In this document: piece by piece, positions 25,870 through 43,825 of the stretch
Layout: the number at the start of each line of letters is the position of its first letter
How positions within the stretch are numbered: position 1 is the stretch's first letter
IMG/VR virus record: IMGVR_UViG_3300034019_001677
Location: 4,047-68,046 of that record
Length of the DNA stretch: 64,000 bases
Reading direction: 5' to 3' (one strand)
From: a virus
Notes under the pieces: generated by a model
Databases searched by the model: none
Told to the model about the DNA's origin: nothing
The model's input: the letters and a program-made list of their open reading frames with translations, nothing else
Translations under genes and position numbers: made by a program

Positions 25870-26035
25870 TCAGCGCTTGGCCTGTGGCTTGCCTTCGCGG
25901 GCGGTGGCCACAGGAGGGGCATCCTGGAGGCGCAGCATCACCGTGGTCTCCACGGCCACGTTGGCCCAGTCGATGGGCTCGCCATCGGCCCGGGGGGCCT
26001 GGGGGGGGAAAGCTGGGGGGCTGGTGGGTGCTCAT
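25870..26035 (-). pseudogene. Small ORF apparently frameshifted at a G8 tract
   Basis: With one C fewer it reads MSTHQPPSFPPQAPRADGEPIDWANVAVETTVMLRLQD...AKR* and ends flush with the XRE stop. Confidence 0.45.
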
Positions 26036-28023
26036 TGGGCCAGGGTGGCGCATTGCATCCGGAGGGCATCGATCCGGACCTCCAGGATGTTGGCAGCGGC
26101 ATCACGGCGCCGGCTGCCACCAAGGCGTTGCCGCGGCCCGGCGGCCAGGCCGGCGGCTTCCTTTCCCCGTACCGGAGCAATGCCCCGCTGGGCGCGGCAC
26201 TCTTTCGGCAGAGAGATGCAGGCGTTCCCGCAGCTGTAGCCCGTGCGGCACTGCCGCTTGAGAGCGTCGATTCGCTCCTGCAGGCTGTCGGCCCGGGGCC
26301 GCTTGCGCAGACCCAGGGCCATCAGCTCCTGCTCTACAGCGGCGAACACGTCCCGCTCCAGCTCCTGCCGCACCTTCGTTTCAGATTCGCCCGCTTCCAC
26401 TCGATCAGCAGCGCGGTTGAGAGCGGAGCTGATGGGCCCGCTGGAGCTCTTCAGACGCTCGAACACCGACAGGGCCTCGCTGGCCTCGCCGGCAACCTTG
26501 GCGCTCTGCTGCTGGTTGATCACGTTGCCAGCCTTCTCCGCGAGGGTGGAGGCTGCTCTGGTCTTGGAGACGGTGCCAAACAGGCGCTTCTCCCGCGTGA
26601 TTTTGGCCTTCAGGCCGGCGGAGAGCTTGGCCCGGGTGAAGAGGTTGTCCTTGACCTCCTGGCTCATCCCGAAGAGGTCCATCGTGGTCTGGGTGCGCTG
26701 CTCGCTGGCAGCGGCATGTTCCACCAGCTCGAGCAGCGTCTGATCAGCAATGCCCTTGCGGGAGCCGATCATCTTGAACACCTCCCGCTGCTTTGCCTCA
26801 TCGAGGCCGCTGCCGCCAATGATCGCGCCGCGGTTCACGCTCAGATCACCGCGCACCACGGCGTTGAACACCTCGCCGGGCAGCTTGCTGAGTTTGAGGC
26901 CCTTCTCCGCCTGGCCGCTGCGCAGCGGCAGGCCCTTGGCCTCCACATCAGCCTGGGACCTGATGCCAGTGTCGCGGAAAAATTTGGCGGCATCCATCGG
27001 GGTGCCGGCACCCTCGGCAATGTTCTGCATGGCGCCGATCGCCCGGGCTTCGGTGGCGGTTTTTGCGTTGAGGAAGCGCACGGTCACCTCCTCGGCTCCC
27101 AGGCGCCGGGCCAGGGCCATCCGGTTGTGGCCGTTCACCACGTAGACCTTGCCGTCGGCTGGGTCCTTCCAGACGCTCATCACGCCGGCGAGGTTTGGAT
27201 CCCACTTGCGAACACCCGAGAGGCTGCCCACCTCACCGGTGCCCTCAGTGGCGTTCAACTTGTACTGGAACCGCCCTGGATCGAAGACGATCTCACCGGG
27301 CTTCATGTTGCGGACGGTGCCGGGCTCCGTGGAAGCGCTGGCGGCCTCGGGGAGCTTGCCGGTGCGCAGGTACTCGGCAATCTCGGGCCGGGCCAACAGC
27401 TTCTCCACCCGCTTGGTGGTGCGCTCCTGTTGCCGCTCTCTTGCGGCCACTCCCCGGGCGGCCGACACCTGAGAGGCGGTGGCCACGGCGGCCTTGTCGC
27501 CGGCGGCCGCCAGCTGCTGCAGACGCCGCAGGCGAGCCTGGCCGATCGCGCTGCCCGGGGTGATCCGGCATTCCTTCTGCAGGGAGATGCAGGCGGAGCC
27601 GCAGCTGTAGCCGGTGGTGCATTTGCGCTTCTGACCGGTGGCCCGGTTACTGCGGCGGAAATCCATCCGCACGGCAGGAGCCCGCAGCTGCAGGAACGAA
27701 TCCGATCTCAGCTCCCAGCCACGCTCACCGATGCCGTCCCAGGCGGGCCGGTAGCCGACACCTTCCGCATCGACACGAAAGCGGTAGACCAGACCATCGG
27801 CGGCCATCCGCCCGGCATGGCCGGCGCCCTCCTGCCGCCAGTCGAGCACCAGGGCGCCGGGAAGGACCTCCGCCAGCAGCTGTTGCAAGACCGGAGAGAC
27901 CCGATCGGCAGCGTCATGCCGCAGGGCCGCCGGCCGGCGGGGCAGGGCCTGCCGGGCCGTCGAGACAGGCAACTGGGCCTCGATGGCCGAGAGGCGATCC
28001 TGCAGGGCCTGGTGACGGCTCAT
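26032..28023 (-). CDS. Modular head-module protein: ParB-like domain flanked by two Cys4 motifs
   Basis: 'GKVYVVNGHNRMALARRLG' is ParB/Srx-like; CxxGYSCGxxCISxxKEC occurs twice. Confidence 0.8.
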   Translation of the reverse strand: MSRHQALQDRLSAIEAQLPVSTARQALPRRPAALRHDAADRVSPVLQQLLAEVLPGALVLDWRQEGAGHAGRMAADGLVYRFRVDAEGVGYRPAWDGIGERGWELRSDSFLQLRAPAVRMDFRRSNRATGQKRKCTTGYSCGSACISLQKECRITPGSAIGQARLRRLQQLAAAGDKAAVATASQVSAARGVAARERQQERTTKRVEKLLARPEIAEYLRTGKLPEAASASTEPGTVRNMKPGEIVFDPGRFQYKLNATEGTGEVGSLSGVRKWDPNLAGVMSVWKDPADGKVYVVNGHNRMALARRLGAEEVTVRFLNAKTATEARAIGAMQNIAEGAGTPMDAAKFFRDTGIRSQADVEAKGLPLRSGQAEKGLKLSKLPGEVFNAVVRGDLSVNRGAIIGGSGLDEAKQREVFKMIGSRKGIADQTLLELVEHAAASEQRTQTTMDLFGMSQEVKDNLFTRAKLSAGLKAKITREKRLFGTVSKTRAASTLAEKAGNVINQQQSAKVAGEASEALSVFERLKSSSGPISSALNRAADRVEAGESETKVRQELERDVFAAVEQELMALGLRKRPRADSLQERIDALKRQCRTGYSCGNACISLPKECRAQRGIAPVRGKEAAGLAAGPRQRLGGSRRRDAAANILEVRIDALRMQCATLAQ

Positions 28024-28517
28024 CGATCAGGGGCCTCCTTCCATGGCCGTGGCGGTGTCAGGCGGCTGCGCAGGTGGTCCGCCGCGGCAGCACTTGTCGA
28101 AGATGCTGCGGAGGTGATCGCGGCCCTCACGTCTGCGGCGGGAATCATCCCGGCTGCCTTGGCAGCATCCTCAACCTCCTGATGCGTCGGGAATCGAGCC
28201 CCCGGTGCAAGGGTCGTCATCGCCTGCTGCTGGATCTCTGCAGCTTGCGACCAGACATCAGCCCGGAGCCTTTCGGCATCCACCACCTGTTGTTGGAAGG
28301 TGATGACCGGCGCCAGCGCCGCTTTCAGGTCTTCGATGGGCTTTGTGGCCACCGCCAGCAGCCGCTCCTCCAGTCCCTCGAGGGCCGTGTCGATCCGGTC
28401 TTCCGCCCGATCCAGCGCGGCATCGATCGCCCCGTTCAGCTGTGGGCGGACCTTGTTTGCCAGTTTCAGGACGAGGCGATCCAGGAGGGGGTCCAGCAGT
28501 CGATCAAGCCAGTTCAT
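28020..28517 (-). CDS. Hypothetical helical protein
   Basis: 165 aa with overlapping start/stop codons on both sides. Confidence 0.65.
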   Translation of the reverse strand: MNWLDRLLDPLLDRLVLKLANKVRPQLNGAIDAALDRAEDRIDTALEGLEERLLAVATKPIEDLKAALAPVITFQQQVVDAERLRADVWSQAAEIQQQAMTTLAPGARFPTHQEVEDAAKAAGMIPAADVRAAITSAASSTSAAAADHLRSRLTPPRPWKEAPDR

Positions 28518-28786
28518 CGGGATACTCCGAGAAGAGTTTTCATGCGCTCGAGCCGGGCCTGCAGGGCATCAATGCGGCTGTCGCCCCGGTCGCTCTGGCC
28601 CGTGCCTTTCGGTCGGTAGGTAACCATGCCGCTTTTGGTGAACTTGAACGTGAAGCGCTGCTGGTTGGACACAAACTCTCCCTGGGGCTCGCCGCCCTGG
28701 TCAGAAATCGAGAGGATCCGCACCGGTCTGATTTGCTCGCTGAGCAGCTCGGTGGCCAGCTGCACCATTTCGGTTCGTCGGTCCAT
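28514..28786 (-). CDS. Hypothetical protein ending in an 'RGDSRIDAL' linker motif
   Basis: 90 aa; 'FTFKF...VTYRP' resembles 'YRFRV...VGYRP' in the N-terminus of 26032..28023. Confidence 0.65.
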   Translation of the reverse strand: MDRRTEMVQLATELLSEQIRPVRILSISDQGGEPQGEFVSNQQRFTFKFTKSGMVTYRPKGTGQSDRGDSRIDALQARLERMKTLLGVSR

Positions 28787-28923
28787 AGGTTCGATGCGCT
28801 TTGGCCTCAGTCTGGGCCCGGTATGGTTGCCCGCTGTGATTCAGTTGCCGTGACCACTAGACCCTCCATTTGAACGGCGGGGAACGCGGATTCTTGAAAT
28901 ACTTCCCGCTCGGGGTGCCTGTT

Positions 28924-29031
28924 GCCGGCGCCAAACCCGCCGAAGACGTGGAGACTACTCCGGGCAACCCCAACAGGCTGTTGTAAGCGATCTGCGCTCC
29001 ATCGCCGCCGTCGTGGTTGTGGCTGTTGCCG
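28924..29031. repeat. 108-bp direct repeat, copy 1 (copy 2 at 31221-31328)
   Basis: Hand alignment shows 4 mismatches in 108 bp. Confidence 0.9.
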
Positions 29032-29188
29032 CGAACGTAGGTTTCGATCATCACCGGCAGCGCCTGATCGAGCCGGCCCAGGCTGGCGCCCGTGGTGCCC
29101 GGGGCGTTGACCGGGTTGTCCTCACCGGGGCTGACGGTGATTGCCGGGGCTTCGGACCTGGAGTAAGCCTGCGCTCTGCTGCAGTAGA

Positions 29189-29245
29189 TCCGCGTGCCGA
29201 CCTGCACCGTGCCCGGCAGGGTGACGGTGCAGGTCGGCACGCGGA
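29189..29245. repeat. Perfect 22-bp inverted repeat with 13-nt spacer
   Basis: tccgcgtgccgacctgcaccgt / acggtgcaggtcggcacgcgga. Confidence 0.9.
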
Positions 29246-29295
29246 GGCTGGGGTGGTCATGGGTGGGGCGTTGTAGTCGGGGATGCTGCGGGGGG

Positions 29296-30183
29296 CTAGA
29301 TCGGGTAGCGGATAATGACGATGCCGGAGCCGCCGTTGCCGCCAGTACCGCTTGCACCCGCAGCGCTATGACCACCACCACCACCACCGGTATTTGGCTG
29401 ACCACTGTTTGAGCTTCCGCTGCTAACGCCTGCAGCGCCACCGCCCAAGCCCCCAGCACCGCCTGAGCCGCCTGGGCGGATGCCGCCGCCGCCGCCGCCT
29501 GCTCGTGCAACTGCTGTGCCAGTGATGGTGGATGTTATGCCGTTACCGCCTGCGCCGCTTTGTGTCGAGCTTGTCGCATTTCCGCCCGGTGCACCCGCGC
29601 CGCCGCCGCCACCTGTCGGGAATGGTGACAAGCGAATATTGCCATTACCACCACCGATAGATCCTTGTCCCGTCGTTCCCGAACCGCCAAATGACTGGCC
29701 AAGGCTATTTTCGCCGCCGCCGCCGCCGCTGCCGCCGCTATTGCCGTCACTGGATTGAGCGCCAGCGCCACCTCCTATAGCGATAACCGAAGAAAAACTG
29801 GAGTTGCCTCCATTCGTGGCTGTGGCGAAGCCTGCTGTGCCGCCTGCGCCAACGACTACGGGATAAGACCCCGCTGTTAATACAAGGGGTGTTTCTGCGC
29901 TGACATTCTGACCAGACAATTCACCTTGAACTGAACATCTATAACCACCGGCGCCACCACCTCCTTTAATAGCAGCGCCACCGCCAGCAACAATTAAATA
30001 CTCAACACTCCCTCCATTGGTAACAGAAAACGTAGATGCGCCAACAGTCGTAAACCGGTGCACACGGTAGTTGATGCCGCCAACAGTTATATCTGTAACA
30101 GTATCGCCACCAGTGGCAATAACGCCGCCGGAAGGCGGGGTCAAGCTCCCCACAAACGCCACATCAAACAGGCTGAACGTCAT
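29296..30183 (-). CDS. Glycine-rich fibre/adhesin-like protein
   Basis: 'YRVHRFT...VEYLIVAGGG...GGSGIVIIRY', typical glycine-rich phage domain; lower GC. Confidence 0.8.
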   Translation of the reverse strand: MTFSLFDVAFVGSLTPPSGGVIATGGDTVTDITVGGINYRVHRFTTVGASTFSVTNGGSVEYLIVAGGGAAIKGGGGAGGYRCSVQGELSGQNVSAETPLVLTAGSYPVVVGAGGTAGFATATNGGNSSFSSVIAIGGGAGAQSSDGNSGGSGGGGGENSLGQSFGGSGTTGQGSIGGGNGNIRLSPFPTGGGGGAGAPGGNATSSTQSGAGGNGITSTITGTAVARAGGGGGGIRPGGSGGAGGLGGGAAGVSSGSSNSGQPNTGGGGGGHSAAGASGTGGNGGSGIVIIRYPI

Positions 30184-30911
30184 AACTGCACTTCCACCGG
30201 CAGCCACTGCAGCGCCGATTCCAAGGCCTCGGTCTCGGGATCGTCCGGCGCATAGGTGCCATCCACCGCCCTCGGCTGATCCCATCGCCACCGCGACCCA
30301 TCAGGGCCGGTCCACTCATCGCCTCGCGCCGGATTCGGCGGCCAGTTCCACTGCTGCTGTGCCCCGGCCAGGCCCACCACGAACTCAGCGGGAAGGTCGT
30401 ACTGAGTGGCGAGCATCTGCAGCCCTGCGACCAGCTCAGGCGCGATCAGGCCAATGTCCTGGCAGGTCTGCCAGGCGCCCAGGAACACCCTGCTGTCACC
30501 ATCGGCAGCCTTCCCGAGACCCACGCCCAGGGCCAGTGCAAGGCGCGGCGAGACGGTCTGCGCAGCGGCCAGGAGCTGATCCACTCCCACCGGCAGGGCG
30601 TCAGAGAATTCGATCCAGCGGGGCGGGTGCGTCTGGCGGTAGTGCGCCTCTCGCTCAGCTTGGGTCAGCTCCACCAGCTCCCACTGCTGCAGCCACTGGC
30701 CATCGGCTTCGACTGGCTGAGCCTCCACCACGCGATGGGTGGCGGGGTTGGGCTGAGGCTGAGGCTGCGGCGCCACGCGGAACACGCCGTAGTGCGCCAG
30801 CTCAGCATCACTCGGCGCCGCCGAGAACGATCGGGCGGGCTCATCGGTGCGGAGCTGGCCCAGCGAATACGGCCAGCGGAGCGGGTTGAGGCGGATCAGG
30901 GTGCTCATCAT
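30180..30911 (-). CDS. Fibre-associated protein (chaperone-like)
   Basis: 'WPYS..QLR.D.P..SF...L..YGVF.V...W.Q.W' pattern seen next to fibre genes. Confidence 0.6.
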   Translation of the reverse strand: MMSTLIRLNPLRWPYSLGQLRTDEPARSFSAAPSDAELAHYGVFRVAPQPQPQPNPATHRVVEAQPVEADGQWLQQWELVELTQAEREAHYRQTHPPRWIEFSDALPVGVDQLLAAAQTVSPRLALALGVGLGKAADGDSRVFLGAWQTCQDIGLIAPELVAGLQMLATQYDLPAEFVVGLAGAQQQWNWPPNPARGDEWTGPDGSRWRWDQPRAVDGTYAPDDPETEALESALQWLPVEVQL

Positions 30912-32170
30912 CAGCTCTGCACGGCGTAGGCCGCCACCACGTCAGCGTTGGTGGTTCCAAATGCGGTGATGCTGAGCACGCCCACCTTCGACGCGGCGAT
31001 GTTCGCGGGCTTGGTGCCCAGGAACTTCCAATCAGTCGGGAACGTGAGCGTGCGCTGGTTGGCATCGGCCACCAGCCGAATCACCAGCGTCCGCCCATTG
31101 GCCAGGTTGCTGGTGGTCAGCTCCAGATTCCCGGTGAGGCTGATCGTCCGGTACTGGGCATCGAGGCTGGCGAAGTCCAACGCCACCGTCGCGCCGTAGG
31201 TGATCGTCGAAAACGACCTGGCCGGCGCCAAGCCAGCCGAAGACGGGGAGACTACTCCGGGCAACCCCAACAGGCTGTTGTAAGCGATCTGCGATCCATC
31301 GCCGCCGTCGTGGTTGTGGCTGTTGCCGTTCGTGACGCCCTGGTTGGCGGGTGCCGCGCCGACATCACCGAACCCGAGGACGACGTCACCGGTCTGGCTG
31401 TTGACGCTGGAGACGGGGGCGATCGGATACCCGAGGCGCTGCCAGTGCGCCAGTGACGATCCGCCATCAACGACCAGGACCCAGGTGCCGCCGTTGGCGC
31501 CGGCATCGGTGCGGATACACCAGTCACCGCGCTGCCCTGAGAAGGTCAGCATCGCCGCTTGGTTGGCGGCCGTGCCCAGAAACTCAGTGATTGCCAACGA
31601 CGGCAGCTGAGACGTTGGGATGACGCCCCCAATCAGGTCCGCCTTCAGGGAGAGGTTGGGGGCTCCGGCGAGGCTGGTGTACGGGAGCTGGCCCGTAACC
31701 TCGCTGGAGAGATCTACCGCCGTTCCGGCGCTCCAGGTGTCGGCCGCTGTCCGGCGCACGATGCCGGTGCCGCTTAACCCCTCAACCGCTGCCAGATCGT
31801 TGGCCAGCGCCAGGGTGATCGAGCCGGAAGAGGTGATAGGCCCACCGCTAACCGTGATCCCCGCTGCCGGCTGGCTGATGTTGACGCTGGTGACCGTGCC
31901 AGTCCCGGTAGCGGTAACAGTCAGATTCGTGCCGGTGATGCTCAGCCCATCCGCCAGGTTGAGGTACGTGAGCTTGCCGGCGCTGGCATCCCAGAACAGG
32001 AGCACGTCTCCAGCAGGGCCCTCGGCATTCAGCTGCTGGCCCGCCAGGCTCAGCACGTCATCGACGCTGGCCCCCAGCGTCACATCTGTTCCGCTTCCTG
32101 GATCGGGGTTCCCGATGGTCGCCTGCAGAACGGTTTCCTGTAGCTGGACGACAGCCGAGATGTCAGTCAC
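30911..32170 (-). CDS. Tail-fibre-like structural protein
   Basis: Gly/Thr/Ser-rich; 'GTVTSV', 'VSSVNSQTGDVVL' fibre repeats. Confidence 0.75.
   Translation of the reverse strand: MTDISAVVQLQETVLQATIGNPDPGSGTDVTLGASVDDVLSLAGQQLNAEGPAGDVLLFWDASAGKLTYLNLADGLSITGTNLTVTATGTGTVTSVNISQPAAGITVSGGPITSSGSITLALANDLAAVEGLSGTGIVRRTAADTWSAGTAVDLSSEVTGQLPYTSLAGAPNLSLKADLIGGVIPTSQLPSLAITEFLGTAANQAAMLTFSGQRGDWCIRTDAGANGGTWVLVVDGGSSLAHWQRLGYPIAPVSSVNSQTGDVVLGFGDVGAAPANQGVTNGNSHNHDGGDGSQIAYNSLLGLPGVVSPSSAGLAPARSFSTITYGATVALDFASLDAQYRTISLTGNLELTTSNLANGRTLVIRLVADANQRTLTFPTDWKFLGTKPANIAASKVGVLSITAFGTTNADVVAAYAVQS
31221..31328. repeat. 108-bp direct repeat, copy 2 (inside the fibre gene)
   Basis: Matches 28924-29031. 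Confidence 0.9.
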
Positions 32171-32520
32171 GACGCACTCCCGATTCGGGTGATCTCTTGC
32201 GTGCCAGCGAAGAGCGGAACGATCAGTCCGGTGGATAGAATGACAATGATCTCCCAGTAGTAGAGACCGACCGTCAACGGGAGGACCTGCGGCAGCACCC
32301 GAAAAACACCGCCGGTGGCGTTGGTGATCTGGATGCCGGTGTTGACCCCCATCGCCAGTCGCTCGGCTCTCTCTCCCACTCGCCGGTAAACCATTTGCAG
32401 CTGCGCACCGGTGAGGTTTAGAGGCGTGCCGGCCGGCATCTCCAGGGTGACCGAATTGATTCCCTCCCAGGTCGTGCCTTCATAGACGGCATCGAGCTGC
32501 AGGGTTTGCGGCTGTGTCAC
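32167..32520 (-). CDS. BppU-N-like fibre attachment/baseplate protein
   Basis: GTG start; 'G.T......PLNLTGA...GIQITNATGG.F...G.Y.WEI'. Confidence 0.6.
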   Translation of the reverse strand: MTQPQTLQLDAVYEGTTWEGINSVTLEMPAGTPLNLTGAQLQMVYRRVGERAERLAMGVNTGIQITNATGGVFRVLPQVLPLTVGLYYWEIIVILSTGLIVPLFAGTQEITRIGSAS

Positions 32521-33665: not shown

Positions 33666-33907
33666 GCCAGGGGAAGGCCTCAACCGCTGCACGACCTCAG
33701 AATCTGCTGCTGACAGTGGCCGATGCCGCGGAAGCGTTGAGTGTGAGCGAGAAGTACATCAGGCGCCTGACTCTGCGCGATGCACTGCAACAGCGCCTGA
33801 TCAGCTACGCGGCTGAGGTGCGATCGGGTCACCACCAGGCCCCACCGTCACCGACCGCAGCACCGCCGCAAACAGCACCCGTTGCTGTTCAGGTGTCGCG
33901 CCATTGA
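33662..33907 (+). CDS. Excisionase-like HTH (possibly truncated)
   Basis: 'LLTVADAAEALSVSEKYIRRL' is HTH_17/Xis-like; converges on and overlaps the integrase 3' end. Confidence 0.55.
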   Translation: MSQGKASTAARPQNLLLTVADAAEALSVSEKYIRRLTLRDALQQRLISYAAEVRSGHHQAPPSPTAAPPQTAPVAVQVSRH

Positions 33908-35117
33908 AGAACCACGGATCCTGCAGCGCTGAATAGGCAGCAGGATCAATGGCCGGTTGCTCCACGCGCTGCTCCGTCTCGATTCGCTGCCGCTGCTCCG
34001 CCACTGCTGCCGCCATCGCCCGGTTGTCCGGGTTACGGGCCGCCATCCGCTCCATCAGCTCCAGCTCGCCGCGCATCGCTGCCAGTGCTGGATCTTCTGC
34101 TGCTGGTTCGCTCAGCACGGCCGCTAGTCGCCGCGCCTCAGCCACGCACGCCTCGACAACTACCGGAAGGATTCGATCCTCCCTGGCTCCGCCACGGGCA
34201 TCGCAGAGCCGGTGCCGGCACCGCCACCACGCCACGCCGTTCGATGTGTTTCGTCGCAGCAGGTGGCCGCAGGATGCGCACCGCAGCAGCCCCGTCAGCC
34301 CGTGCCGGGTCTCGGTGGTGCCCGCTGCCTTGAACCGGTTGGTGGGTCGCTGCAGCAGTGCGGCCAGCTCCCGCCAGTCCTGTTCGCTGATTAGTGCCGG
34401 GTGCTGGTCGTAGTGGATCTCACCCCACTGCCGCCGCCAGCCCTTGCCGCTGCCCCTGTCGAGCTGGTGGCCGATGTGCCCGCGGATCACGGGATTCACG
34501 AACCACGCCTGCAGGTTGGTGGCGGCCGGCGTCCACGCGCACCACTGCGGCATGGAGCGGGCCACCGCCGCAAAGCTCGCCAGCCGCCGCAGCTCACGCA
34601 ACACGCGCAACGCCTCCCCCCAGTGCTCAGGGTGCGGCTCCAGCCGATGGCCTGGCCCGTTCTGGTAGCCGAAGGGCTTGCGCCGCCTGAGGTGCCGTCC
34701 CTCGGCGCGGTAGACGGTGAACTGGCGACGTAGGCGCATCGAGAGCATGCGCGATTCCATCTCCGCCAGGCCCGTCTGCAGCCTGGCCATCAGGAACCCC
34801 TGAGGAGTCGCCGTCTCGATCGCGCCACCGTCCAGGGCCCGAACCGTGACGCCCCGCGCCTCGCACTGGGCCAGCAGGGCGTCGGTGTAGGCCGCATCAC
34901 GCCCCAGTCGGTCCACGCGGGTCACCAGCAGCTCCGAGACCTCGCCGGCCTGCACCATCGCCATCAGCTCCAGCAGTCCGTCCCGATCCGAGCTGCGGCC
35001 TGTTTCTATGTCGGTGATCACACGGCTGCAGCCGGCGGCATTGAGGCGGCTGACCTGGGCGGGGAGGGCGTCGGCCTGATCGTCCTTGCTGACGCGGGCG
35101 TAGCCGATGGCAGCCAT
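33801..35117 (-). CDS. Large serine recombinase (integrase; XisF-like)
   Basis: 'GYARVS' catalytic Ser, 'VTRVDRLGR', 'PFGY' recombinase domain, Zn ribbon 'LTGLLRCASCG...WWRC...C'. Confidence 0.95.
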   Translation of the reverse strand: MAAIGYARVSKDDQADALPAQVSRLNAAGCSRVITDIETGRSSDRDGLLELMAMVQAGEVSELLVTRVDRLGRDAAYTDALLAQCEARGVTVRALDGGAIETATPQGFLMARLQTGLAEMESRMLSMRLRRQFTVYRAEGRHLRRRKPFGYQNGPGHRLEPHPEHWGEALRVLRELRRLASFAAVARSMPQWCAWTPAATNLQAWFVNPVIRGHIGHQLDRGSGKGWRRQWGEIHYDQHPALISEQDWRELAALLQRPTNRFKAAGTTETRHGLTGLLRCASCGHLLRRNTSNGVAWWRCRHRLCDARGGAREDRILPVVVEACVAEARRLAAVLSEPAAEDPALAAMRGELELMERMAARNPDNRAMAAAVAEQRQRIETEQRVEQPAIDPAAYSALQDPWFFNGATPEQQRVLFAAVLRSVTVGPGGDPIAPQPRS

Positions 35118-35655: not shown

Positions 35656-37041
35656 TCACACCTCCAGCTCCGCCACCTCAGTGACCATGGCCTCGTAGGC
35701 CTCGCGAGCGGCGGCATTGATCCATCCCCTGGAGGGGGTCCACACCGGATCCCCTGATGGCCAGGGCCTGGCGCCGCCGTTTGCCGGGTTGTTGGCCTGG
35801 TTCGGCCGGGGTGTGGTGGCCGGCAGGGCGGTGCGCTCCATCAGCGGGAAGTCGCCCGGGCCGCGGGGCTCACCGGTGCCGCCGATCGGCCGCCAGGGCC
35901 TGCTGCTGGCCTGGTCGTACTTCTGCCGCGTCGCCGCGGCCAGGGCCTGCTGCTGCGCCTCCCATCGCTCGCCGCGGCCGCTGGCCAGCTCGTTCTGGAT
36001 CACCAGGGCCTCGAGGGTGATCGGGGACAGGGCGCAACGGCAGTTCGGGTGCGCGGGGGTCTTCACGCTGCCGGCGTAGTAGAGGCATCCCATGCGGGGC
36101 GCACACCACTCACAGACCCGATCGTCGGCCGTGGCGACCCACCGCACAAAGCCGGCCCCAACACGGCGGAAAGTGCGCTCGCGGGCCTCGCCGGCGGCGA
36201 TGTGGGTTTCGGTGCGTGCCACGGTCTCGGCCCGGTTGCGGAAGGCGTCGTTGATGTGGGGCAGGCGGGCCTTGAGGGTGCGGGCCAGCGTGCGGCTGTC
36301 CACGCCGGTGGCCAACTGGGTGGCGGTCTCGAACTGCACCGTGTCGCCCCAGTCACGCCACCAGCGGAAGAAGTAGTCCTTGGAGGCGCGCACCCGCTCA
36401 TCGGTGGCAGTGTTGCGCTGGCGCCGGTAGTTGGCGCTGAGGCTCTGGAAGTCGCGCTCGGCCGCGGCGATGGTGGCGCCCATGTTGAGCAGCCTGGTGA
36501 AACTCTGGCCCTCCTGGTAGGGGCTGCCCGGGGCGGGCGCATCGGTGGGGGCCGGAGGGGCGGCGGGCGGCAGCTGGGGGTCCTGCAGGGCCGGGTGCCG
36601 GCCGGAGAGCACGGCGGCCGGGGGGAGCATGTCGCGCGAGAGCTCGAGGGCGTACTCGGTCCCCAGGTCCTGGGCCTTGTTGTAGAGCTCCGTGAGCTCA
36701 CGGTTGAGGGCTGTGTTGGCGGCCCGGGCGGCCGGGAAGCGGTTGATGATCGCCTGCAGGTCCTGGGCGAGCTGGCCCTGTAGGTAGAGGCTGGCCTGGT
36801 TTTTCTGCAGGGGGGTGATGGGCACCGGGCCGCCGGGGGTGCTGCCGAGGAATGCGCCGGGGGTGGTGGCCGGGTCGTACTCGGGCTGCTCCGCGATCCG
36901 CTCCAGGCGATCGGTGATGCTTCGGATGGTGCGGCGCAGGGCCTCATCGAAGATCCCGCGCAGCTTGCGAAGCTGCCGATCCTCCAGGCCCCGCAACTGC
37001 TGGTCGAGCTCCTCGAGCAGCTCCAGGGACCGGTCAGCCAT
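35656..37041 (-). CDS. MuF / SPP1 gp7-family head morphogenesis protein
   Basis: 'RAETVARTE...W.AT.DDRVCEWC...PAHPNCRC'. Confidence 0.92.
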   Translation of the reverse strand: MADRSLELLEELDQQLRGLEDRQLRKLRGIFDEALRRTIRSITDRLERIAEQPEYDPATTPGAFLGSTPGGPVPITPLQKNQASLYLQGQLAQDLQAIINRFPAARAANTALNRELTELYNKAQDLGTEYALELSRDMLPPAAVLSGRHPALQDPQLPPAAPPAPTDAPAPGSPYQEGQSFTRLLNMGATIAAAERDFQSLSANYRRQRNTATDERVRASKDYFFRWWRDWGDTVQFETATQLATGVDSRTLARTLKARLPHINDAFRNRAETVARTETHIAAGEARERTFRRVGAGFVRWVATADDRVCEWCAPRMGCLYYAGSVKTPAHPNCRCALSPITLEALVIQNELASGRGERWEAQQQALAAATRQKYDQASSRPWRPIGGTGEPRGPGDFPLMERTALPATTPRPNQANNPANGGARPWPSGDPVWTPSRGWINAAAREAYEAMVTEVAELEV

Positions 37042-37362: not shown

Positions 37363-40300
37363 TCAATCATGCAGTGCTGGGTGATACTGCTTCAGAGCGC
37401 GAGGGGCAAAAACCCACGCAGTGAAAGACTCGGCGAACAGCTCCTCTCGGTTTGTCAGTGAATACTTAGACGGCCCACGACCCTGATTCAAGGACTGGGT
37501 AACAGCTGCCGGTGTTGAACGTTGCCGTTCAGAATGCAGGCTGTGCATCAGGACAGTTTCACCTTTGCCGCTCGAAGTGTTTGCCGGCAGATCAGTGCGC
37601 AGCCGCACGCCGGCAAAACTGTCGACAGCGTGCCCTAATTCGTGTACGTGAACAGAAATAGCCTTTTCTGCACCTGTCAAATTAAAGCCGTATCCGATTG
37701 GCATACTTTTAACATTCCACGTCTCTGGATCCGAATCACTTAGACTGCCTAGTCGCTCTGGCAGGTGCTTTGCTATGTGGCTGCTGTAAGACCGCCTAAG
37801 TTTTCTAGGGTCTATTTTGGACGCTTCAGGCTTAAGGTCACCGTCCCATCCAGTAGTCCCAGCTCTTGCCACATAGGCTTTTTGCCCAAACACATAAAAG
37901 CCTCCTGAGTTGAGGTCGGCGAGCCCCTTTGTGTTACTGGTTATCAGTTCTTGAGCCGCCCATTTCAATTCATTTAGGCGACTCTCTTTAAGAGAGTTGT
38001 ACGTTTTTCGTGCATAAGAGACATTTGTGGTGTAGTAAGAAAGCTCCTTTTTCCTGTCTTCTTCAAATCGCCATCCCTGAGCGATGCCTCGGTCGAACTG
38101 GGCCGTTTGATCTGCGAGGTCTGCAAGGTGATCGGCCAGTCGTTGCTTTGCCCTCAGTTCTTCCGGTGCTGGCTTGAGCTTTGACGGGTTCCTGATTATC
38201 TCCGCCTTGCGGACCAAGCCTGCACCGGCGATGGTGTTGTCTTTCCGCATCCATTCCATGCGTTCATCACTGACCAGCCCCATCTCGACAACCATTTTGG
38301 CAAGTTTTTTTCCGTCATTCCATGGGATCTCTTTAGACCCAATTTCCTTGCCGGTGATTCGCTTGATTTCGCCGGAACTTTCTGCTGCCACGTTTACAAG
38401 GATGCCGGCTTCCTCCATAAACGCCAGAGCCTTCCTCGCGTTCACACCAGCCTCTCCTGGCGCATCACGCGCCACCTTCAGGAGCGCTGCCGCCAATTCC
38501 TCGCCCCCGTAGTTCACTGCACCGGTGCGAATTGTGCGCTCCTTGATGCCCTGTGCAATGCGGGCTTCCACCTCAGGGCTGAATGGCAGGTTTGTGGGGA
38601 TCAGTCCATCACGACCTAACTGCCCCCTTTGCTCCAGCAGCTGCAGGGCTTTCTGGCTTCGTTGGGCGGCGATGCCCTGAGCAATCTCCGCAGCCTCTCC
38701 AGTCTTCACCGTGCCGATGCCTCGCTGGTTAGATGGGGCCCCGCCGGCCAGGGCCAGCAGGCGCTTCAGCCGTTCCTTCCCGATTGCGCTGCCCGGACTG
38801 GTGCGGCACTCCTTCCGCAGGCTGATGCACGTCGCCCCGCAGCTGTAGCCCGTGCTGCATTTTCGGCGAAGGGCGTCGATCCGCTGCTGCAGGCTGTTGC
38901 CTCTGAAGAGGCTTTTCAAGGTCGAATCAGCCCGCGGCGACTGCAGGCGCTCTCTCCTGATCCGCACAGCTCGGAAGACGTTGTTCAGGCCCCAGACCCA
39001 TTGATCCTGATCGCCCTGCTCAGGGACGATCCAATCCTCAAAGCGGGGGTCTCGATAGCGCTCATTCCTTCGCTGGCGGGCGGGGCTGGCATCAGTCAGC
39101 AGCCTTGACGCCGACATGAAACGCTGGCCTGCGATGTAGCGCTCAGCATCCACTCCGGTCAGTTGCGTGCGCGCAGTCCAGCGATGTCCATCCGGTCCCC
39201 CATACGCTTCTGGTCCCCCATAGCGGGCAATTTCGTCGTCAATGTCTGCCATCTGATCGTCAAAAAACTTCCTGCGCTCAGGATCTGTCGATCGGTAAGC
39301 CTGCTGCTTGATCTGCTCGGTGGCCCAGTTCAGCTCATCGGTGCTCATCCGCTGGGTGACAGCCGCCTCAAACAGGCTGCCCACCAGCCCTGGCGTCTTG
39401 TCACTGGGTTGGCGCCGTGGGTAGAGGATGTAGCCGTCATCCCCGAAGAACAGCTCGTCATTCTTGGCGGCCATTTTTTTGAGTCCGGTGGGCCGCGGGA
39501 GGCCTTCACCTTTCGGCTTGATCGGTCGTTCAGGGAAGGAAGGCCGCTTGTTGCGGATGACCCGTGGTTCTCTGTCGCCACCTGTGGCCTTCTCCCCTTG
39601 GCCGCCCGCCTCCCCTTCGCCGAGCTTCAGGGGCTTGGCTCCGACAAAGGAGCCCTCGCTCATCCAGGCGCCTCCCGGATACCAGTGGCCATCGGGCCCT
39701 GTTTCGCCGCCAGGCTTGGCCCGCCGCAGCTGCACGATCACCTTGGGCTTCTTCACCCCTGCGGCGGCGGCCGCGGCTTCCTGCCGCTTGCGTTCGGCTT
39801 TCACCAGGGCCTGCTTTTCGCTGTTCTCTGCCCGGATCTTTCCGGCCATCGCCTGGGCTTCGGCTGCATTGGGCACGCCGATTCCCCGGGGCTTGATGTC
39901 ACCTCGAGCCAGTGAGAAGAGGCGCTGCAGCCGCTCTTTTCCCGTCGTGCTGCCGGGGCTGACCCTGCACTCCTTCTGGATGCTGATGCAGGCGCGGCCG
40001 CAGCTGTAGCCGGTGGTGCAGCGGCGCTTCAAGGCATCAATCCGTTCCTGGATGCTGTCGGCACGGTTGGCTCCCTGCTCGGCCTCAGCCGCCACAACGG
40101 CCTCCAGGCGCTTTCTGGCCTTCTGGATTCGCTTATCCACGTCCTCCACCTTGTAGTGCATGTCGCCGTTGAAAGACCCATGGGTCGGCATGCGCGTTTT
40201 CCCGAGTCGTTCCGCAACACGCGCAGCAACCCAGTGGCTGACCATGGTGGAGCGCTCATGCGGCATCAGATGGGCCTCCTCAGGCGTTGAGGCGGCCCGG

Positions 40301-41052
40301 GGGGCGATGCCAACGCGCCGGGCCATCACCTTGGCGGGCATGGCGTGGCTGCTGCCTGGCATGACCCATTCGAGGCCGCGGCCATACTCGTTGCGGCTGA
40401 TCTGCGGCTCAGGCGGGGTTTCCTGCTCGATCTCGCGATAGATGTTGCCGATCCGCTTGAGCTCTTGCTGGAGCTGGGCCTTCTCCATCTCGAGCTTGGC
40501 AACCGTCTGGGCACTGGATCGGACCCGCTTGAACCCTGCTTTTTGGTCGGCGGTGTTGAAGCCCAGCAGCTTTACCGCCGTCTCGCTGCTCACCAGGCCG
40601 GTGCTGCCATCGGGCCTGCGCACCTTGAACTGGTGAACCACCCGTCTGCCGGTTTCGGCATTCTGCTCTGAACGCTCCCAGTCGCTGACCCGCTTGAGCT
40701 GCTCCTCTCCGTGGCTGTCCTGGAAGCTGTCCATCATCCACTGCCATTCGTAGGCCAGCAGCTCAGCCCCTGATGGGCCCTTCACTGGCGGATTGAAGGA
40801 AATGGGCTCCACAGGCCGGCGGCGGCGGGTGTCGTCTGGTGGAGCGCCTGGATCTGCCCCTTGGCCTTTGTGGCATTCCTTGTCGCGATTGATCCAGCCC
40901 TGACCGCACGGCTCACCAGTGCCCTTACCTGCTGCTGGAGGGCTGCCTCCTAAATCGAGACCCAGCTGGCCTGGGACTTCAGCTCGGCGCCGGAGGGCAT
41001 CCAGGCGGTGCTGGATCAGCTGTGCACGGATCAGCGCAGGCCGGGTCTGCAT
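37363..41052 (-). CDS. Large modular protein with three Cys-motif-delimited modules and a C-terminal zincin metallopeptidase
   Basis: 'HELGHAVD...SKYSLTNREELFAESF' (HExxH plus E); two full Cys4 linkers and one variant; likely start is ATG 41052. Confidence 0.8.
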   Translation of the reverse strand: MQTRPALIRAQLIQHRLDALRRRAEVPGQLGLDLGGSPPAAGKGTGEPCGQGWINRDKECHKGQGADPGAPPDDTRRRRPVEPISFNPPVKGPSGAELLAYEWQWMMDSFQDSHGEEQLKRVSDWERSEQNAETGRRVVHQFKVRRPDGSTGLVSSETAVKLLGFNTADQKAGFKRVRSSAQTVAKLEMEKAQLQQELKRIGNIYREIEQETPPEPQISRNEYGRGLEWVMPGSSHAMPAKVMARRVGIAPRAASTPEEAHLMPHERSTMVSHWVAARVAERLGKTRMPTHGSFNGDMHYKVEDVDKRIQKARKRLEAVVAAEAEQGANRADSIQERIDALKRRCTTGYSCGRACISIQKECRVSPGSTTGKERLQRLFSLARGDIKPRGIGVPNAAEAQAMAGKIRAENSEKQALVKAERKRQEAAAAAAGVKKPKVIVQLRRAKPGGETGPDGHWYPGGAWMSEGSFVGAKPLKLGEGEAGGQGEKATGGDREPRVIRNKRPSFPERPIKPKGEGLPRPTGLKKMAAKNDELFFGDDGYILYPRRQPSDKTPGLVGSLFEAAVTQRMSTDELNWATEQIKQQAYRSTDPERRKFFDDQMADIDDEIARYGGPEAYGGPDGHRWTARTQLTGVDAERYIAGQRFMSASRLLTDASPARQRRNERYRDPRFEDWIVPEQGDQDQWVWGLNNVFRAVRIRRERLQSPRADSTLKSLFRGNSLQQRIDALRRKCSTGYSCGATCISLRKECRTSPGSAIGKERLKRLLALAGGAPSNQRGIGTVKTGEAAEIAQGIAAQRSQKALQLLEQRGQLGRDGLIPTNLPFSPEVEARIAQGIKERTIRTGAVNYGGEELAAALLKVARDAPGEAGVNARKALAFMEEAGILVNVAAESSGEIKRITGKEIGSKEIPWNDGKKLAKMVVEMGLVSDERMEWMRKDNTIAGAGLVRKAEIIRNPSKLKPAPEELRAKQRLADHLADLADQTAQFDRGIAQGWRFEEDRKKELSYYTTNVSYARKTYNSLKESRLNELKWAAQELITSNTKGLADLNSGGFYVFGQKAYVARAGTTGWDGDLKPEASKIDPRKLRRSYSSHIAKHLPERLGSLSDSDPETWNVKSMPIGYGFNLTGAEKAISVHVHELGHAVDSFAGVRLRTDLPANTSSGKGETVLMHSLHSERQRSTPAAVTQSLNQGRGPSKYSLTNREELFAESFTAWVFAPRALKQYHPALHD

Positions 41053-41053
41053 G

Positions 41054-43825
41054 TCAGCAGCATCTGGCGCGCAGGGCATCGAGGCGATCCTGAATGACGG
41101 AATCCATCAGTGCTTTCACGCTGTTCTTCATGCTGACCAGCTTCTCGAACACCTTCCGATCACCGCCGGCATCCGGGTGGTGCTTCATGGCCAGCTTGCG
41201 GAAGGCCTTGTCCACATCGGCCTTGGTGGCCTTTTTCGGATCCAGGCCGAAGGCCACCCAGGGGCGGAAGTTCTTGAGGATGTCCACCCCGTTGATGACG
41301 CTGCCGCCGTCCTTGAGGCCACGCTCATCCCTGGGGACCGCAACGAACCGCCGATAGAGCTGGCGCCACTCCTCCTCGGCGTTCTTGCCCTTGAGGGTGC
41401 GGGGGTTGTCACCCACGACCGACTGCTGAAAATTCTTGTTGGCCATCAGGGCGGCCGTGCTCTTCACGTTGAACGACTTGAAAACCGCCGATCGCATCTC
41501 CCTGATGGTCATGGGCTTGGCCGTGCTGGCCGGGCCCTTCCCTTGGCCCTCCGATGCCTTCTCACTTCCTCCCCTGCTGGAGGGGGCCTCCTTGGCCCTG
41601 GCGCCACCGCTGACAGCAGGGCCGCCTTCCTTGCCAGCCGCCAGGGCGAGAATCCGCGTCATCTTCTGCTGATTGGCGCCGCCGGGGGTCTTGCGGCAGA
41701 CCTTGCCCATCGAAATGCAGCTGGCCCCGCAGCTGTAGCCGGTGCGGCACTGCCGCTTCACGGCATCGATGCGCTGCGTGGCCATCGCCTCACGGATCAG
41801 CCGCTGGATTCGCTGCTCACGGCTGTCGGTGCGGCGGTTCATGCTGCCGAAGGTGTTGGTGCCCACGGCCTTCATCAGCTCATCCAATGCGGGGGCCATC
41901 TTCGCGATCTGCTCCTTGTTGGGCCACAGGGGGCTCTCACCGCCCAGGCCTGAGAGGTAGGTGTTCTCCTGCCCCTTGGTCTTCAGCTTGTGCTGCACGT
42001 ACCGCTCGAAGGTGCGGGCGAACACCTCACGGCCTGAAGTCCAGTATGAATATTGAGCGCTGCCAGCTTTGATTCCATAGCCTGCCAGTCCGTCTCTCAG
42101 GGTAAACCGAAAGTCTGTGTCATCGATAGCCTTTCGGACGCTATCCATAGCCTTCCAAACCGGATTATCCGCCTGGCTTTTAGTCCCACCATTCGGGTCC
42201 CAGTACAAACCACTGGTTTGCTCGCTCAGGTATGCTGGTCCACTCCTCATGCGTGATTTACCGCGGGGAGTTTGCTGGCCGATGTAATCATCCAAGGCGT
42301 GCCCCCATTCGTGGGCCAGGGTGCCGACACCGTTCTTCCGGGTGATGTTGATCACTTTTGTCCCCGGCTCGTAGTGTGCCGCGGCCCGACCCTTGCCTCT
42401 GGCTCCGAAGGCCAGGCCCAGCTGGCCGTCCAGCGAGATGGCCCGATCTGGGAGCCCCGTCACGTCCGCCAGGTCGACCAGGGCCTCGGCGGTCTTGCGC
42501 AGGTGGTGGGCCCTTTCTTCATCGGTGACGCTGTTGCCGAACTGCAGGCCCCGCATTCCCATTCGGTTGGCGAGCACCGTGGTGGACCCGGCCGGCGTGT
42601 CATCGACACCCAGGGCGCGGCCGCCAGTGCGGACCGCCCTCTTCACGTAGAGGTCGGCGGCGTTGATGGTCGCCCCGCCGCGCTGCACCCCGGTGACCTT
42701 GTCGATCGAGGCCCCCCCCAGGATCTCCTGTGTGGCGTTGCGCATCACATCCGCCAGCTCAGCGGTGCTCTTTCCGTCGTTGGCCTTCTTGAGGCGGACC
42801 CCCAGGGTGTTGATCTGCCCGGTAACTGACGTTTTGGAGTAGCTGCCTCTGCTGGCCTTGTTGGTGAGGTCCACCAAGGAGTTGGCCAGGGGGTTGTAGC
42901 GATCGTATGTGTCCAGGGAGCGATTCCCCCTGATGGCCGTGATCCGGTTGGTGGTGGCCCGGGAAATTTCCGCGAGCATCTCGCGCGGATCAGCATCATC
43001 CCGTCGGCGGTCGATGATGCCCTTCACCTCCTGAAGGTGGTCGTAGTAGAGCTTGCGCATCTCCGCCGGGGTCTTCTTCCCGGTGATCTGGGCCCGGTTG
43101 TAAGCCTGGAAGGCCTTATCGGTGAAAGGCTGCGCCGGAAAGGATTTCAGGGCCAGGTGGCCGGCCAGGCGGGTGAGGTAGTTGGCGTTGGTGAGGCCTT
43201 CCGTCAGGTCGAGCGGCTCGGCTTTGAGCAGCTTGTCTCGGGTGACCATGGCCGCGGCCGTGCCATCGGCTTCTGCCTCGCTCAGCGAACGCCACTGGTT
43301 GGCCTTGTGCCGAGCGGAGCCCTTCAGGTCTTCCCCGACATTCCCCACAGTTGACGGCCTGGCGAACTCGTAGTCCGGATCCGCTGCCTTGGCGGCCCGA
43401 TCGGCCTCACCCCGGGGGGTGCCGGCCGGCGCCATAGGGCGATCGCCGGCGCTTGGGCGTGGCTGGCGGGCCTGTGCGGCGGCCTTGGCCGCGGCCTCTG
43501 CCGCCTGTGCTGCTTGGGCCTTCTCTGCCGCGGCCTGCTGGCGTACCCCCCGCAGCTGGCCCGCTTTCTCCCCCCGGCGGGTGGCGATACCCTCGGCCAG
43601 CTCACCGGCCTCCTTGGCCTTCACCGGGGCAATGCCGCGCTGGCTGGAGGCGCCCCCGGCCGCCAGGGCCAGCAGGCGCTTGAGGCGTTCCTTCCCGATC
43701 GCCGACCCCGGGCTGGTGCGGCATTCCTTCCGCAGGGAGATGCAGGTGCTCCCGCAGCTGTAGCCCGTGCGGCACTGCCGTTTGAGGGCGTCGATCCGCT
43801 GCTGCAGGCTGTCAGCCAGGTTCAT
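41054..43825 (-). CDS. Polyvalent protein: Cys4 motif, LPD1-like domain, Cys4 motif, DnaJ domain
   Basis: 'GLQFGN...LGLAFGARG...AHYEP...AHEWGHALD...EVFARTFE' is LPD1-like; 'AFRKLAMKHHPDAGG' is a J-domain. Confidence 0.85.
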   Translation of the reverse strand: MNLADSLQQRIDALKRQCRTGYSCGSTCISLRKECRTSPGSAIGKERLKRLLALAAGGASSQRGIAPVKAKEAGELAEGIATRRGEKAGQLRGVRQQAAAEKAQAAQAAEAAAKAAAQARQPRPSAGDRPMAPAGTPRGEADRAAKAADPDYEFARPSTVGNVGEDLKGSARHKANQWRSLSEAEADGTAAAMVTRDKLLKAEPLDLTEGLTNANYLTRLAGHLALKSFPAQPFTDKAFQAYNRAQITGKKTPAEMRKLYYDHLQEVKGIIDRRRDDADPREMLAEISRATTNRITAIRGNRSLDTYDRYNPLANSLVDLTNKASRGSYSKTSVTGQINTLGVRLKKANDGKSTAELADVMRNATQEILGGASIDKVTGVQRGGATINAADLYVKRAVRTGGRALGVDDTPAGSTTVLANRMGMRGLQFGNSVTDEERAHHLRKTAEALVDLADVTGLPDRAISLDGQLGLAFGARGKGRAAAHYEPGTKVINITRKNGVGTLAHEWGHALDDYIGQQTPRGKSRMRSGPAYLSEQTSGLYWDPNGGTKSQADNPVWKAMDSVRKAIDDTDFRFTLRDGLAGYGIKAGSAQYSYWTSGREVFARTFERYVQHKLKTKGQENTYLSGLGGESPLWPNKEQIAKMAPALDELMKAVGTNTFGSMNRRTDSREQRIQRLIREAMATQRIDAVKRQCRTGYSCGASCISMGKVCRKTPGGANQQKMTRILALAAGKEGGPAVSGGARAKEAPSSRGGSEKASEGQGKGPASTAKPMTIREMRSAVFKSFNVKSTAALMANKNFQQSVVGDNPRTLKGKNAEEEWRQLYRRFVAVPRDERGLKDGGSVINGVDILKNFRPWVAFGLDPKKATKADVDKAFRKLAMKHHPDAGGDRKVFEKLVSMKNSVKALMDSVIQDRLDALRARCC

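Follow-up and report, generated by a model that had tools for sequence, protein, structure and literature searches.

A rare, unnamed junction domain in polyvalent virion proteins of a probable Cyanobium phage shares motifs with the DUF2213 scaffold

Results

A repeated junction unit in a block of virion genes

The virus record IMGVR_UViG_3300034019_001677 is 68,046 bp long and rated 96% complete, and the window analyzed here (its bases 4047-68046, 64,000 nucleotides, GC ~65%) contains a minus-strand block of virion genes in which three large proteins, P0001, P0002 and P0003, carry copies of one junction unit, a helix followed by a four-cysteine knuckle. The block begins with the large terminase, portal, P0003, P0002, an 80-amino-acid (aa) open reading frame (ORF) and MuF, continues with a large serine recombinase, tail-fibre-like genes, a 90-aa ORF, a 165-aa ORF and P0001, and then reaches the DUF2213 protease-scaffold gene, a cement protein (PF22758) and the major capsid protein.

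A six-frame regex scan of the window with the pattern C..G[YFW].CG..C[IVL].....C gave six matches, all on the minus strand and inside the P0001-P0003 ORFs (cysteine cores at 43721-43774, 41696-41749, 39967-40020, 38806-38859, 27568-27621 and 26197-26250). A profile of the six units found the same six places, and no seventh, in the whole 68,046-bp record. A first-pass annotation of this DNA had placed six copies of the motif in the three large proteins, which both scan and profile bear out, and the variant it listed, CGQGWINRDKEC, is present at P0002 residues 57-68. Units 1 to 4 below were delimited by regex, alignment and profile, unit 5 by these and a motif scan, and unit 6 by regex, alignment and an AlphaFold2 (AF2) model with its predicted local distance difference test score (pLDDT).

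43571-43825, minus strand: junction unit 1, at the N-terminus of P0003
41546-41800, minus strand: junction unit 2, ahead of the P0003 DnaJ module
39817-40071, minus strand: junction unit 3, ahead of P0002 module M7
38656-38910, minus strand: junction unit 4, ahead of the P0002 zincin module
27418-27672, minus strand: junction unit 5, ahead of the P0001 ParB-like module, with RSDS and RMDF just upstream
26047-26301, minus strand: junction unit 6, past the P0001 ParB-like module, with a RADS site in a segment of pLDDT <50
40873-41007, minus strand: two-cysteine flavour at the P0002 N-terminus, with RLDAL helix, PGQLGLDL, Gly-rich spacer and C-x10-C loop
41057-41107, minus strand: C-terminal half-unit of P0003 (MDS..RLDALRARCC)
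26035-26109, minus strand: C-terminal half-unit of P0001 (RRDA..RIDALRMQC..)
28514-28786, minus strand: 90-aa ORF with the end RGDS-RIDAL, a candidate small head-internal protein

Over 85 aligned residues the six copies are 43-73% identical to the first, and their invariant positions include R10, R16, C18, T20-G25, C28-S30, K33, C35 and R36. Their DNA differs at many synonymous sites (mean column identity 70% in the DNA alignment), indicating that the units are old and held by protein-level selection; recent duplication or gene conversion of the units was rejected on the same ground. The helix motif R[IL]DA[LV] occurs nine times in the window, five times before a knuckle, three times capping a protein end and once in the 90-aa ORF, and a six-frame scan confines it to the P0001-P0003 ORFs and that ORF (28514-28786). 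The RIDAL/RLDAL caps reported earlier on protein ends and in the 90-aa ORF are thus present.

Architecture of the three proteins

Cutting the proteins at their units gives the following layouts, in which U stands for a unit and M with a number for a module family.

41054-43825, minus strand: P0003, 923 aa, with unit, LPD1/HEWGH zincin, unit, DnaJ and C-terminal half-unit (architecture U-M3-U-M6)
37363-41079, minus strand: P0002, 1238 aa, with RLDAL helix and two-cysteine loop, unknown module M8, unit, unknown module M7, unit and C-terminal HELGH zincin M4
26032-28023, minus strand: P0001, 663 aa, with N-terminal module M2 rich in R-x-D, unit, ParB/Noc-like module, unit and C-terminal half-unit

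The U-M3-U-M6 architecture of P0003 is common to 13 proteins, and its modules match LPD1 (PF18796, E 3e-12) and DnaJ (PF00226, E 2.4e-6) in Pfam. P0002 reads M8-U-M7-U-M4, with Pfam matches to ATLF and M90 below cut-off only. The AF2 model of P0001 contains a ParB/Noc-like module that Foldseek relates to Noc/ParB (E 5.8e-6), and MuF (PF04233) gave no Pfam match in any of the three. The earlier statement that most copies head a different, unrelated module holds for five of the six units (ParB/Noc-like, M7, HELGH zincin, LPD1/HEWGH and DnaJ); the sixth, at P0001 residue 592, is followed by a short tail only.

Polyvalent proteins combine two or more disparate activities in one polypeptide and are encoded among portal, MuF and head morphogenesis genes. 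The ParB/Noc-like fold, LPD1, DnaJ, HELGH and HEWGH modules supply the first feature and the gene order of the window the second, suggesting that P0001-P0003 are phage-type polyvalent cargo proteins, presumably packaged and delivered with the DNA. A frameshift fusing P0003 and P0002 was considered and rejected, as each frame contains an RLDAL segment of its own. Separately, the P0002/P0003 region (38000-44000) has a lower GC content than its neighbours (0.61-0.66) and an AT skew of -0.22 to -0.27, which makes the coding strand of these minus-strand genes A-rich, and the GC content at third codon positions of P0002 falls under 0.68, the cut-off of the rough gene caller used.

The unit is rare and joins exchangeable modules

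When the unit profile was searched exhaustively against 1.84 billion representative proteins, it matched 167 at E <= 1e-3, 79 at 1e-10 and 11 at 1e-30. A word-seeded search with P0003 residues 1-62 gave 98 clusters among 239 candidates, all metagenomic and many from contigs of 64-69 kb. Residues C18, G21, C24, G25, C28, I29 and C35 are invariant across an alignment of 68 sequences, with Y22 and K33 kept in >90%, and the core stays invariant across genomes of 29% to 66% GC.

To follow the modules, 101 proteins (the three from the window and the 98 relatives) were cut at their units and the pieces clustered. This gave 31 module families between units, and the unit always stands at an N-terminus or between modules. 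Zincin module M4 occurs alone as U-M4 in 15 proteins and elsewhere after M7, M17 or M29, M12 comes after M9 or M5, M13 comes after M1 or M5, and what comes after 'M2-U-ParB-U-' is one of at least eleven modules or, as in the window, nothing. Cargo in the relatives that Pfam can name includes zeta toxin, AAA_33, ADP-ribosyltransferases, protein kinases, ABC1, M90/ATLF-like zincins and DnaJ. Among 231 unit-bearing proteins, 125 have their first unit starting <=45 residues from the N-terminus.

A homolog of the portal, MuF, protease or capsid protein lies in the flank of 53 of 58 related IMG/VR loci, a count that is not independent support since most of these loci are one lineage. Together with the 31 swappable module families, it upholds the earlier description of a reusable junction at the N-termini and module boundaries of polyvalent-type proteins in a virion block. 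Related-locus searches with the giant relative P0178 gave only weak matches without knuckles, and those with P0238 and P0183 gave none.

Two more distant groups carry the same core. Giant proteins of 1100-3600 aa contain between two and six units, after which a hydrophobic, Gly/Ala-rich stretch often comes, and small bacterial proteins combine a signal peptide with one or two knuckles. One protein, P0206 (527 aa, with a C-terminal hydrophobic stretch), has 10 matched stretches and 9-10 knuckles; P0206, P0220, P0224, P0189 and P0228 all carry the knuckle core and no Pfam or NCBIfam name. Their sequences suggest an unnamed cysteine mini-domain whose distribution is wider and extends outside phages.

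Structure and family searches

Neither Pfam nor NCBIfam (both at E <= 1, with the distant knuckle proteins included) returned a family for the unit, in agreement with the earlier remark that the motif is not a named one. Two PHROG profiles match it, 33618 (E 5.4e-14, unknown function) and 16619 (E 5e-8, 'minor head protein'), both for P0002; they contain the unit without defining it as a domain. An AF2 model from the 68-sequence alignment (pLDDT 68) places a helix at residues 3-16 (RIDAL), a hairpin at 22-24/27-29 that carries the cysteines and lies in a block of pLDDT ~80, and helices at 42-55 and 70-84. Foldseek found no match to this model in the PDB at E <= 0.001, a wide VIA-align search reached a best Z of 3.0 with no similar solved structure (for a model of pLDDT 68), the unit profile gave 0 matches at E <= 10 among PDB sequences, and a search of the ESM Atlas gave no usable match. 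We conclude that the observation is real and far beyond chance, and that polyvalent virion proteins have in this unit a junction domain that is rare and has no name.

The helix half shares its motifs with head proteins

The head genes of the window that bear on the motif comparison are listed here; 'protease' in the name of ORF 24271-25566 is taken from PHROG 530, and the activity is predicted.

47820-49376, minus strand: large terminase, TerL (phrog_2)
43822-45792, minus strand: portal (PF06381, E 4e-64), with a ~145-aa C-terminal extension holding 5 of 6 R-x-D (PPRTDA, IRRIDGVDL)
35656-37041, minus strand: separate MuF-family gene (PF04233, E 4.1e-10), without unit and without R-x-D
24271-25566, minus strand: DUF2213 protease-scaffold protein (PF09979, E 6.8e-40; phrog_530), with 14 R-x-D including RGDS, RFDSL, RADS and RIDGI
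22663-23598, minus strand: major capsid protein (PF09950), N-terminus MSHRMDD

The 29 window proteins contain [RK]xDS ten times: two each in P0001 and P0002, one in P0003, one in the 90-aa ORF and four in the protease-scaffold protein, where 0.31 would be expected. The pattern R[ILFVM]D[ASG][LIV] occurs twelve times. The cargo proteins account for eight of these, the scaffold for two (RFDSL, RIDGI), and the 90-aa ORF and a place near the portal C-terminus for one each; the remaining 23 of the 29 proteins have none. What is new here is the restriction of the RxDS and RIDAL motifs in the window, the cargo apart, to the protease-scaffold protein (DUF2213) and the tail of the portal. Plain R-x-D follows the same lines: the protease-scaffold protein has 14 (2.8 expected) and P0001 has nine (3.1 expected), neither count being reached in any of 1000 shuffles, five of the six in the portal fall in its C-terminal 145 residues, and TerL and MuF have none. 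As an observation on the portal itself, its C-terminal extension (43822-44300, residues ~500-656) has a conserved EPCC-x2-C and an Arg run, is kept in relatives with 80-91% identity, and may be removed in maturation.

These motifs are conserved beyond the window. Scaffold homologs at 42-45% identity have GRLDAL(I/S)xRLD(S/E)LE at the aligned place, and R282, D284 and L286 of the scaffold do not vary among 11 sequences. R-h-D is retained at the N-termini of capsid proteins that are 49-95% identical (MSHRMDD, MSHRLDN, MTFRLDN, MTVRMDN, TRQDA), also in the Synechococcus siphophage S-CBS4 (MSEFRMDE), which is the nearest cultured phage (protease domain identity 47.5%), and in phage CL131 (EIRMDA). 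The S-CBS4 scaffold carries GRADALAEQVDALK, RGDS and RADS, and the MuF-like protein of that phage has SDSWPRFDA at the N-terminus. Between the portal and protease genes of S-CBS4 there is no large cargo gene, and the unit was not matched in this phage; since it has the motif without the cargo gene, R-x-D appears to belong to the head machinery and to predate the cargo units.

On the cargo side, R-x-D-[ASG] lies <=30 residues upstream of 227 of 306 distinct four-cysteine units, against a background of 10%, and the distant giant proteins repeat the two-part pattern '[RK]xDS ... R-h-D-A ... basic ... C'. The P0001 AF2 model (pLDDT 68) gives RPRADS at 574-579, between two helices, a pLDDT <50, and the RIDAL helix (578-590) and hairpin (595-604) are ordered. 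Because the motifs are common to scaffold, capsid N-terminus, portal tail and cargo, the helix half is most likely a head-assembly and protease-cutting signal copied by the cargo. The first-pass annotation had proposed an RxD cleavage site, an idea strengthened by the motif sharing with scaffold, portal tail and 90-aa ORF; the cutting itself stays a prediction. A search of literature listings found no paper on DUF2213 cleavage specificity.

The helix half also occurs by itself. Among 241 proteins, 60 end in '..D[SA]..R(I/L)DAL-R-x-x-C' plus 0-14 residues, and the profile counts 24 'C1 only' C-terminal ends, which implies that the helix is kept at C-termini and that the hairpin goes with the downstream module. 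Such half-units fit cutting ahead of the helix, or a need for the helix at both protein ends; they also fit scars of lost modules.

The cysteines occur in two states

Counting cysteine states on the skeleton x..G..xG..x[IVL].....x gave all four cysteines (CCCC) 349 times and the second and fourth alone (xCxC) 44 times, in 32 proteins, with other partial states found at most three times each. In the 44 xCxC cases the third position is W (18), H (15), F (8) or Y (3). The two-cysteine flavour has its own upstream pattern, R-L-D-A ... PGQ(L/M)GLD(L/F) ... Gly-rich spacer, of which the P0002 N-terminus is one copy, and R-x-D-[ASG] lies <=60 residues upstream in 28 of 36 distinct copies.

Because C1 and C3 are lost together and C2 and C4 stay, two cysteine pairs (C1-C3 and C2-C4) are favoured, and the occurrence of relatives behind signal peptides likewise favours paired cysteines over a zinc knuckle. 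On this sequence pattern, two pairs fit better than a classical four-ligand zinc site. Classical zinc knuckles and ribbons have two CxxC/CxxH ligand pairs, whereas the unit is spaced C-x5-C-x3-C-x6-C with no CxxC pair and takes the two-cysteine form 44 times. The zinc- or DNA-binding knuckle suggested earlier thus accords less well with the data than paired cysteines do.

Units in the cultured phage CL131

A tblastn search of the unit against cultured phages matched only CL131 (E 2e-3), with no match in Pbunaviruses. The 113-kb genome of CL131, ~40% GC in the part retrieved, carries six units; gp045 and gp047 contain one apiece and the 1811-aa gp048 the other four. Its DUF2213 gene, gp038, encodes RKDS and RTDS motifs, and its capsid protein has R-M-D-A at the N-terminus. 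This arrangement indicates that the unit is tied to virion genes and DUF2213-type heads, not strictly to head genes. The tie to head modules proposed earlier is not a strict one: the CL131 units adjoin the tape-measure gene. The main text of the CL131 paper (PMC6293099) does not state whether ORF045, ORF047 and ORF048 are present in the virion. The CL131 portal gene gp012 (L081 801-4982) is also notable for its product of 1393 aa, roughly double the normal length and suggestive of a portal-cargo fusion, in which no cysteine unit was detected.

Host and neighbouring genes

A megablast search with 20 kb of the window against cultured phages gave no match. The unit profile had only three matches among 185,579 species genomes, all on contigs of Cyanobium metagenome-assembled genomes (MAGs), pointing to Cyanobium as the probable host; in a profile search of 401 cyanobacterial genomes, with <=13 candidates scored per genome, only the starting MAG matched. 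The phage is a temperate, S-CBS4-like siphophage, probably of Cyanobium.

Several neighbouring features are recorded in their own right. A sigma-70-like gene (PF04542, E 3e-12; 45894-46892, plus strand) is encoded between portal and terminase, on the strand opposite to theirs. The large serine recombinase (phrog_95, E 4e-45; 33801-35117, minus strand) sits inside the virion block between MuF and the tail-fibre-like genes. Among these, a 108-nt direct repeat, 96% identical (28924-29031 and 31221-31328), is a duplicated C-terminal coding part of a tail-fibre-like gene, and a perfect 22-nt inverted repeat with a 13-nt spacer (29189-29245) lies near it. Recombinase and repeats may be an integrase plus receptor-binding cassette arrangement. 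A 331-aa ORF (29296-30291, minus strand) is extremely Gly-rich (GGGxGG runs) and overlaps neighbouring ORFs of the tail-fibre region, making it a candidate gene only. A 347-aa protein among the virion genes (17396-18439, minus strand) has an N-terminal domain that matches phage regulator/BstA-like families (phrog_129, E 1.5e-22; phrog_6287, E 1.6e-7).

Discussion

The best-supported mechanism, and on balance a probable one given the sequence comparisons, combines a scaffold-like address, an R-x-D cutting site and a cysteine cap. A two-part junction joins and heads the cargo modules. Its first part, [R/K]-x-D-S and then an R-(I/L)-D-A-L helix, copies motifs of the DUF2213 scaffold and would bring cargo into the assembling procapsid alongside the scaffold, where the DUF2213 prohead protease would cut at R-x-D and turn the strings into single modules. 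The second part, the knuckle C-x2-G-x2-CG-x2-CI-x5-C, would be a beta-hairpin left on the N-terminus of each released module, its cysteines arranged as the pairs C1-C3 and C2-C4 and more likely to form a disulfide- or redox-stabilised cap than a classical zinc finger. We infer cutting at R-x-D by the DUF2213 protease and co-assembly through the helix because the sharing of motifs resembles the protease consensus and scaffold address of T4 and the giant phages.

A number of observations weigh against this mechanism. The unit genes of CL131 directly precede the tape-measure gene, and hydrophobic, Gly/Ala-rich, membrane-like stretches come after five of the six units, which together suggest a role during ejection in addition to head loading. 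The cement protein and many non-head proteins also have no R-x-D, so that the contrast with TerL and MuF rests on few proteins. The S-x-x-E that follows the Asp (DSLQE, DSLAE) is also a common helix N-cap, and part of the D-S conservation may accordingly be structural instead of marking a cutting site. The AF2 model of the unit has a pLDDT of only 68, and a residue-level match between the scaffold helix and the helix-turn-helix of the phage Pa193 scaffold is unreliable. A complex prediction with scaffold residues 250-431 and the unit gave no answer (score 0.00) and counts neither for nor against binding.

In the strongest of the competing explanations the knuckle is a zinc- and DNA-binding element that ties cargo modules to the packaged genome. 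Four invariant cysteines, basic flanks (75-90% K/R at -3 to -1 and 77% R after C4) and a predicted hairpin of pLDDT ~80 would suit it, and P1 DarA-Hdf is described as contacting both capsid and DNA (PMC12810830). We nevertheless regard it as unlikely, since the 5-3-6 spacing lacks a CxxC pair, Pfam, NCBIfam and the PDB hold no match, the 44 two-cysteine forms with an aromatic residue at C3 would be intolerable for a four-ligand zinc site, and the same core lies behind signal peptides in small bacterial proteins.

A bolder version of the address-and-cutting mechanism would make the junction a general 'address, cut site and latch' of DUF2213-type heads, in which the R-x-D helix would load any enzyme, the head protease would cut, and the hairpin would be oxidised (C1-C3, C2-C4) in the virion and reduced in the host cytoplasm, keeping the enzymes tethered or inactive until delivery. 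We put this forward as speculative and hold it to be rather less likely than even the DNA-binding knuckle.

Cutting by the zincin modules of the cargo itself, instead of by the prohead protease, follows from the proposal of Iyer et al. (2017), who predicted self-processing (PMC5512222). P0002 and P0003 each carry an HExxH module and U-M4 zincin proteins are common, but P0001 has no zincin, and R-x-D/RxDS also mark the window scaffold and the scaffold and capsid protein of S-CBS4, a phage with neither a large portal-protease cargo gene nor a match to the unit. We find it improbable.

Two further explanations seem to us still more doubtful. One takes the unit as a mere structural linker and DNA-level recombination joint with no part in loading or cutting; modules are indeed exchanged exactly at units and the C-terminal half-units resemble truncated units, cut variably after C1, but the core is invariant from 29% to 66% GC while the six window copies differ at synonymous sites, the upstream motifs also occur in unshuffled scaffold, capsid protein and portal, and N-terminal copies need no linker. 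The other, equally doubtful, makes the knuckle a membrane- or periplasm-acting part of ejection proteins, disulfide-locked outside the cytoplasm and serving mainly in genome delivery, as the Gly/Ala-rich hydrophobic stretches after five of six CL131 units and after the N-terminal units of several giant relatives, the CL131 genes flanking the tape-measure gene and the relatives in secreted bacterial proteins would suggest; against it, amphipathic, charged helices and modules of soluble enzymes (ParB-like, DnaJ, zincin) come after the units in the window.

The scaffold-like address with its R-x-D cutting site would give a testable rule for cutting and loading (R-x-D plus helix) in a large head type, DUF2213/PF09950, that includes the Pseudomonas Pbunavirus phages. 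Detailed knowledge of the selection, loading, separation and release of enzymes that tailed phages inject is, as far as we are aware, confined to T4 and a few giant phages. Here each cargo module bears one recognisable junction, making the unit a possible search handle for injected anti-defence enzymes in metagenomes, and, if it should prove sufficient for loading, a tag for packaging foreign proteins into capsids. The cysteines, strictly limited to two states, offer a clear-cut structural prediction for a domain without a name in any library.

Comparison with known systems

In T4 a capsid targeting sequence, the N-terminal ~10-20 residues, is carried by the internal proteins IPI-III and Alt and removed by the prohead protease gp21. 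Giant phages such as SPN3US have cargo propeptides, with a short signal common to scaffold-core proteins and cargo that is cut at the protease consensus, which in T4 and the giant phages is L/I-x-E or A-x-E. The likeness to the T4 sequence would lie in a signal common to scaffold and cargo, here scaffold, capsid protein and portal tail, with cutting predicted by analogy. By description the unit differs from the T4 signal in its length of 60-85 residues, in standing also at internal and C-terminal places, in the R-x-D consensus proposed for it and in the cysteine hairpin that follows, which is not known to have an equivalent in T4.

The window scaffold is a homolog of Pa193 gp24 (PDB 9b40_G, E 1.1e-13), and the Pa193/E217 gene order of gp24, cement protein and capsid protein is also that of the window. 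In the available text on Pa193 (PMC11456595), gp24 residues 286-326 stay bound inside the capsid as a helix-turn-helix, unassigned helices of ~16 residues lie beneath the hexons, the capsid protein is modelled from residue 66, and no cargo proteins with a mimicking helix are described. In LBL3, a relative of Pa193, a 382-aa capsid homolog has A-M-D-S at residues 62-65. By analogy, Pa193 may lend thin but real outside support to R-x-D cutting and helix binding.

The Dar system of P1 is described as fixing anti-defence cargo to the inner capsid surface, from which it leaves with the DNA (PMC12810830); as described there, the Dar proteins are unrelated to the units, separate from one another and without a repeated junction. 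In MuF-fused toxins, MuF and effector lie in one polypeptide, whereas here MuF is a separate gene (35656-37041).

The closest likeness is to the polyvalent proteins of Iyer, Burroughs, Anand, de Souza and Aravind (2017; PMC5512222), for which processing and entry into the host along with the DNA were predicted. As set out in the main text of that paper, they are, like the cargo here, large, encoded beside portal and MuF genes and built of disparate domains (ParB-like, zincin, LPD1, kinases, ADP-ribosyltransferases). The words 'cysteine', 'knuckle' and 'linker' are absent from that main text, which describes no conserved junction element. The proteins of the window differ from them, as there described, in that MuF is separate and each boundary has one conserved unit, its helix half mimicking the scaffold.

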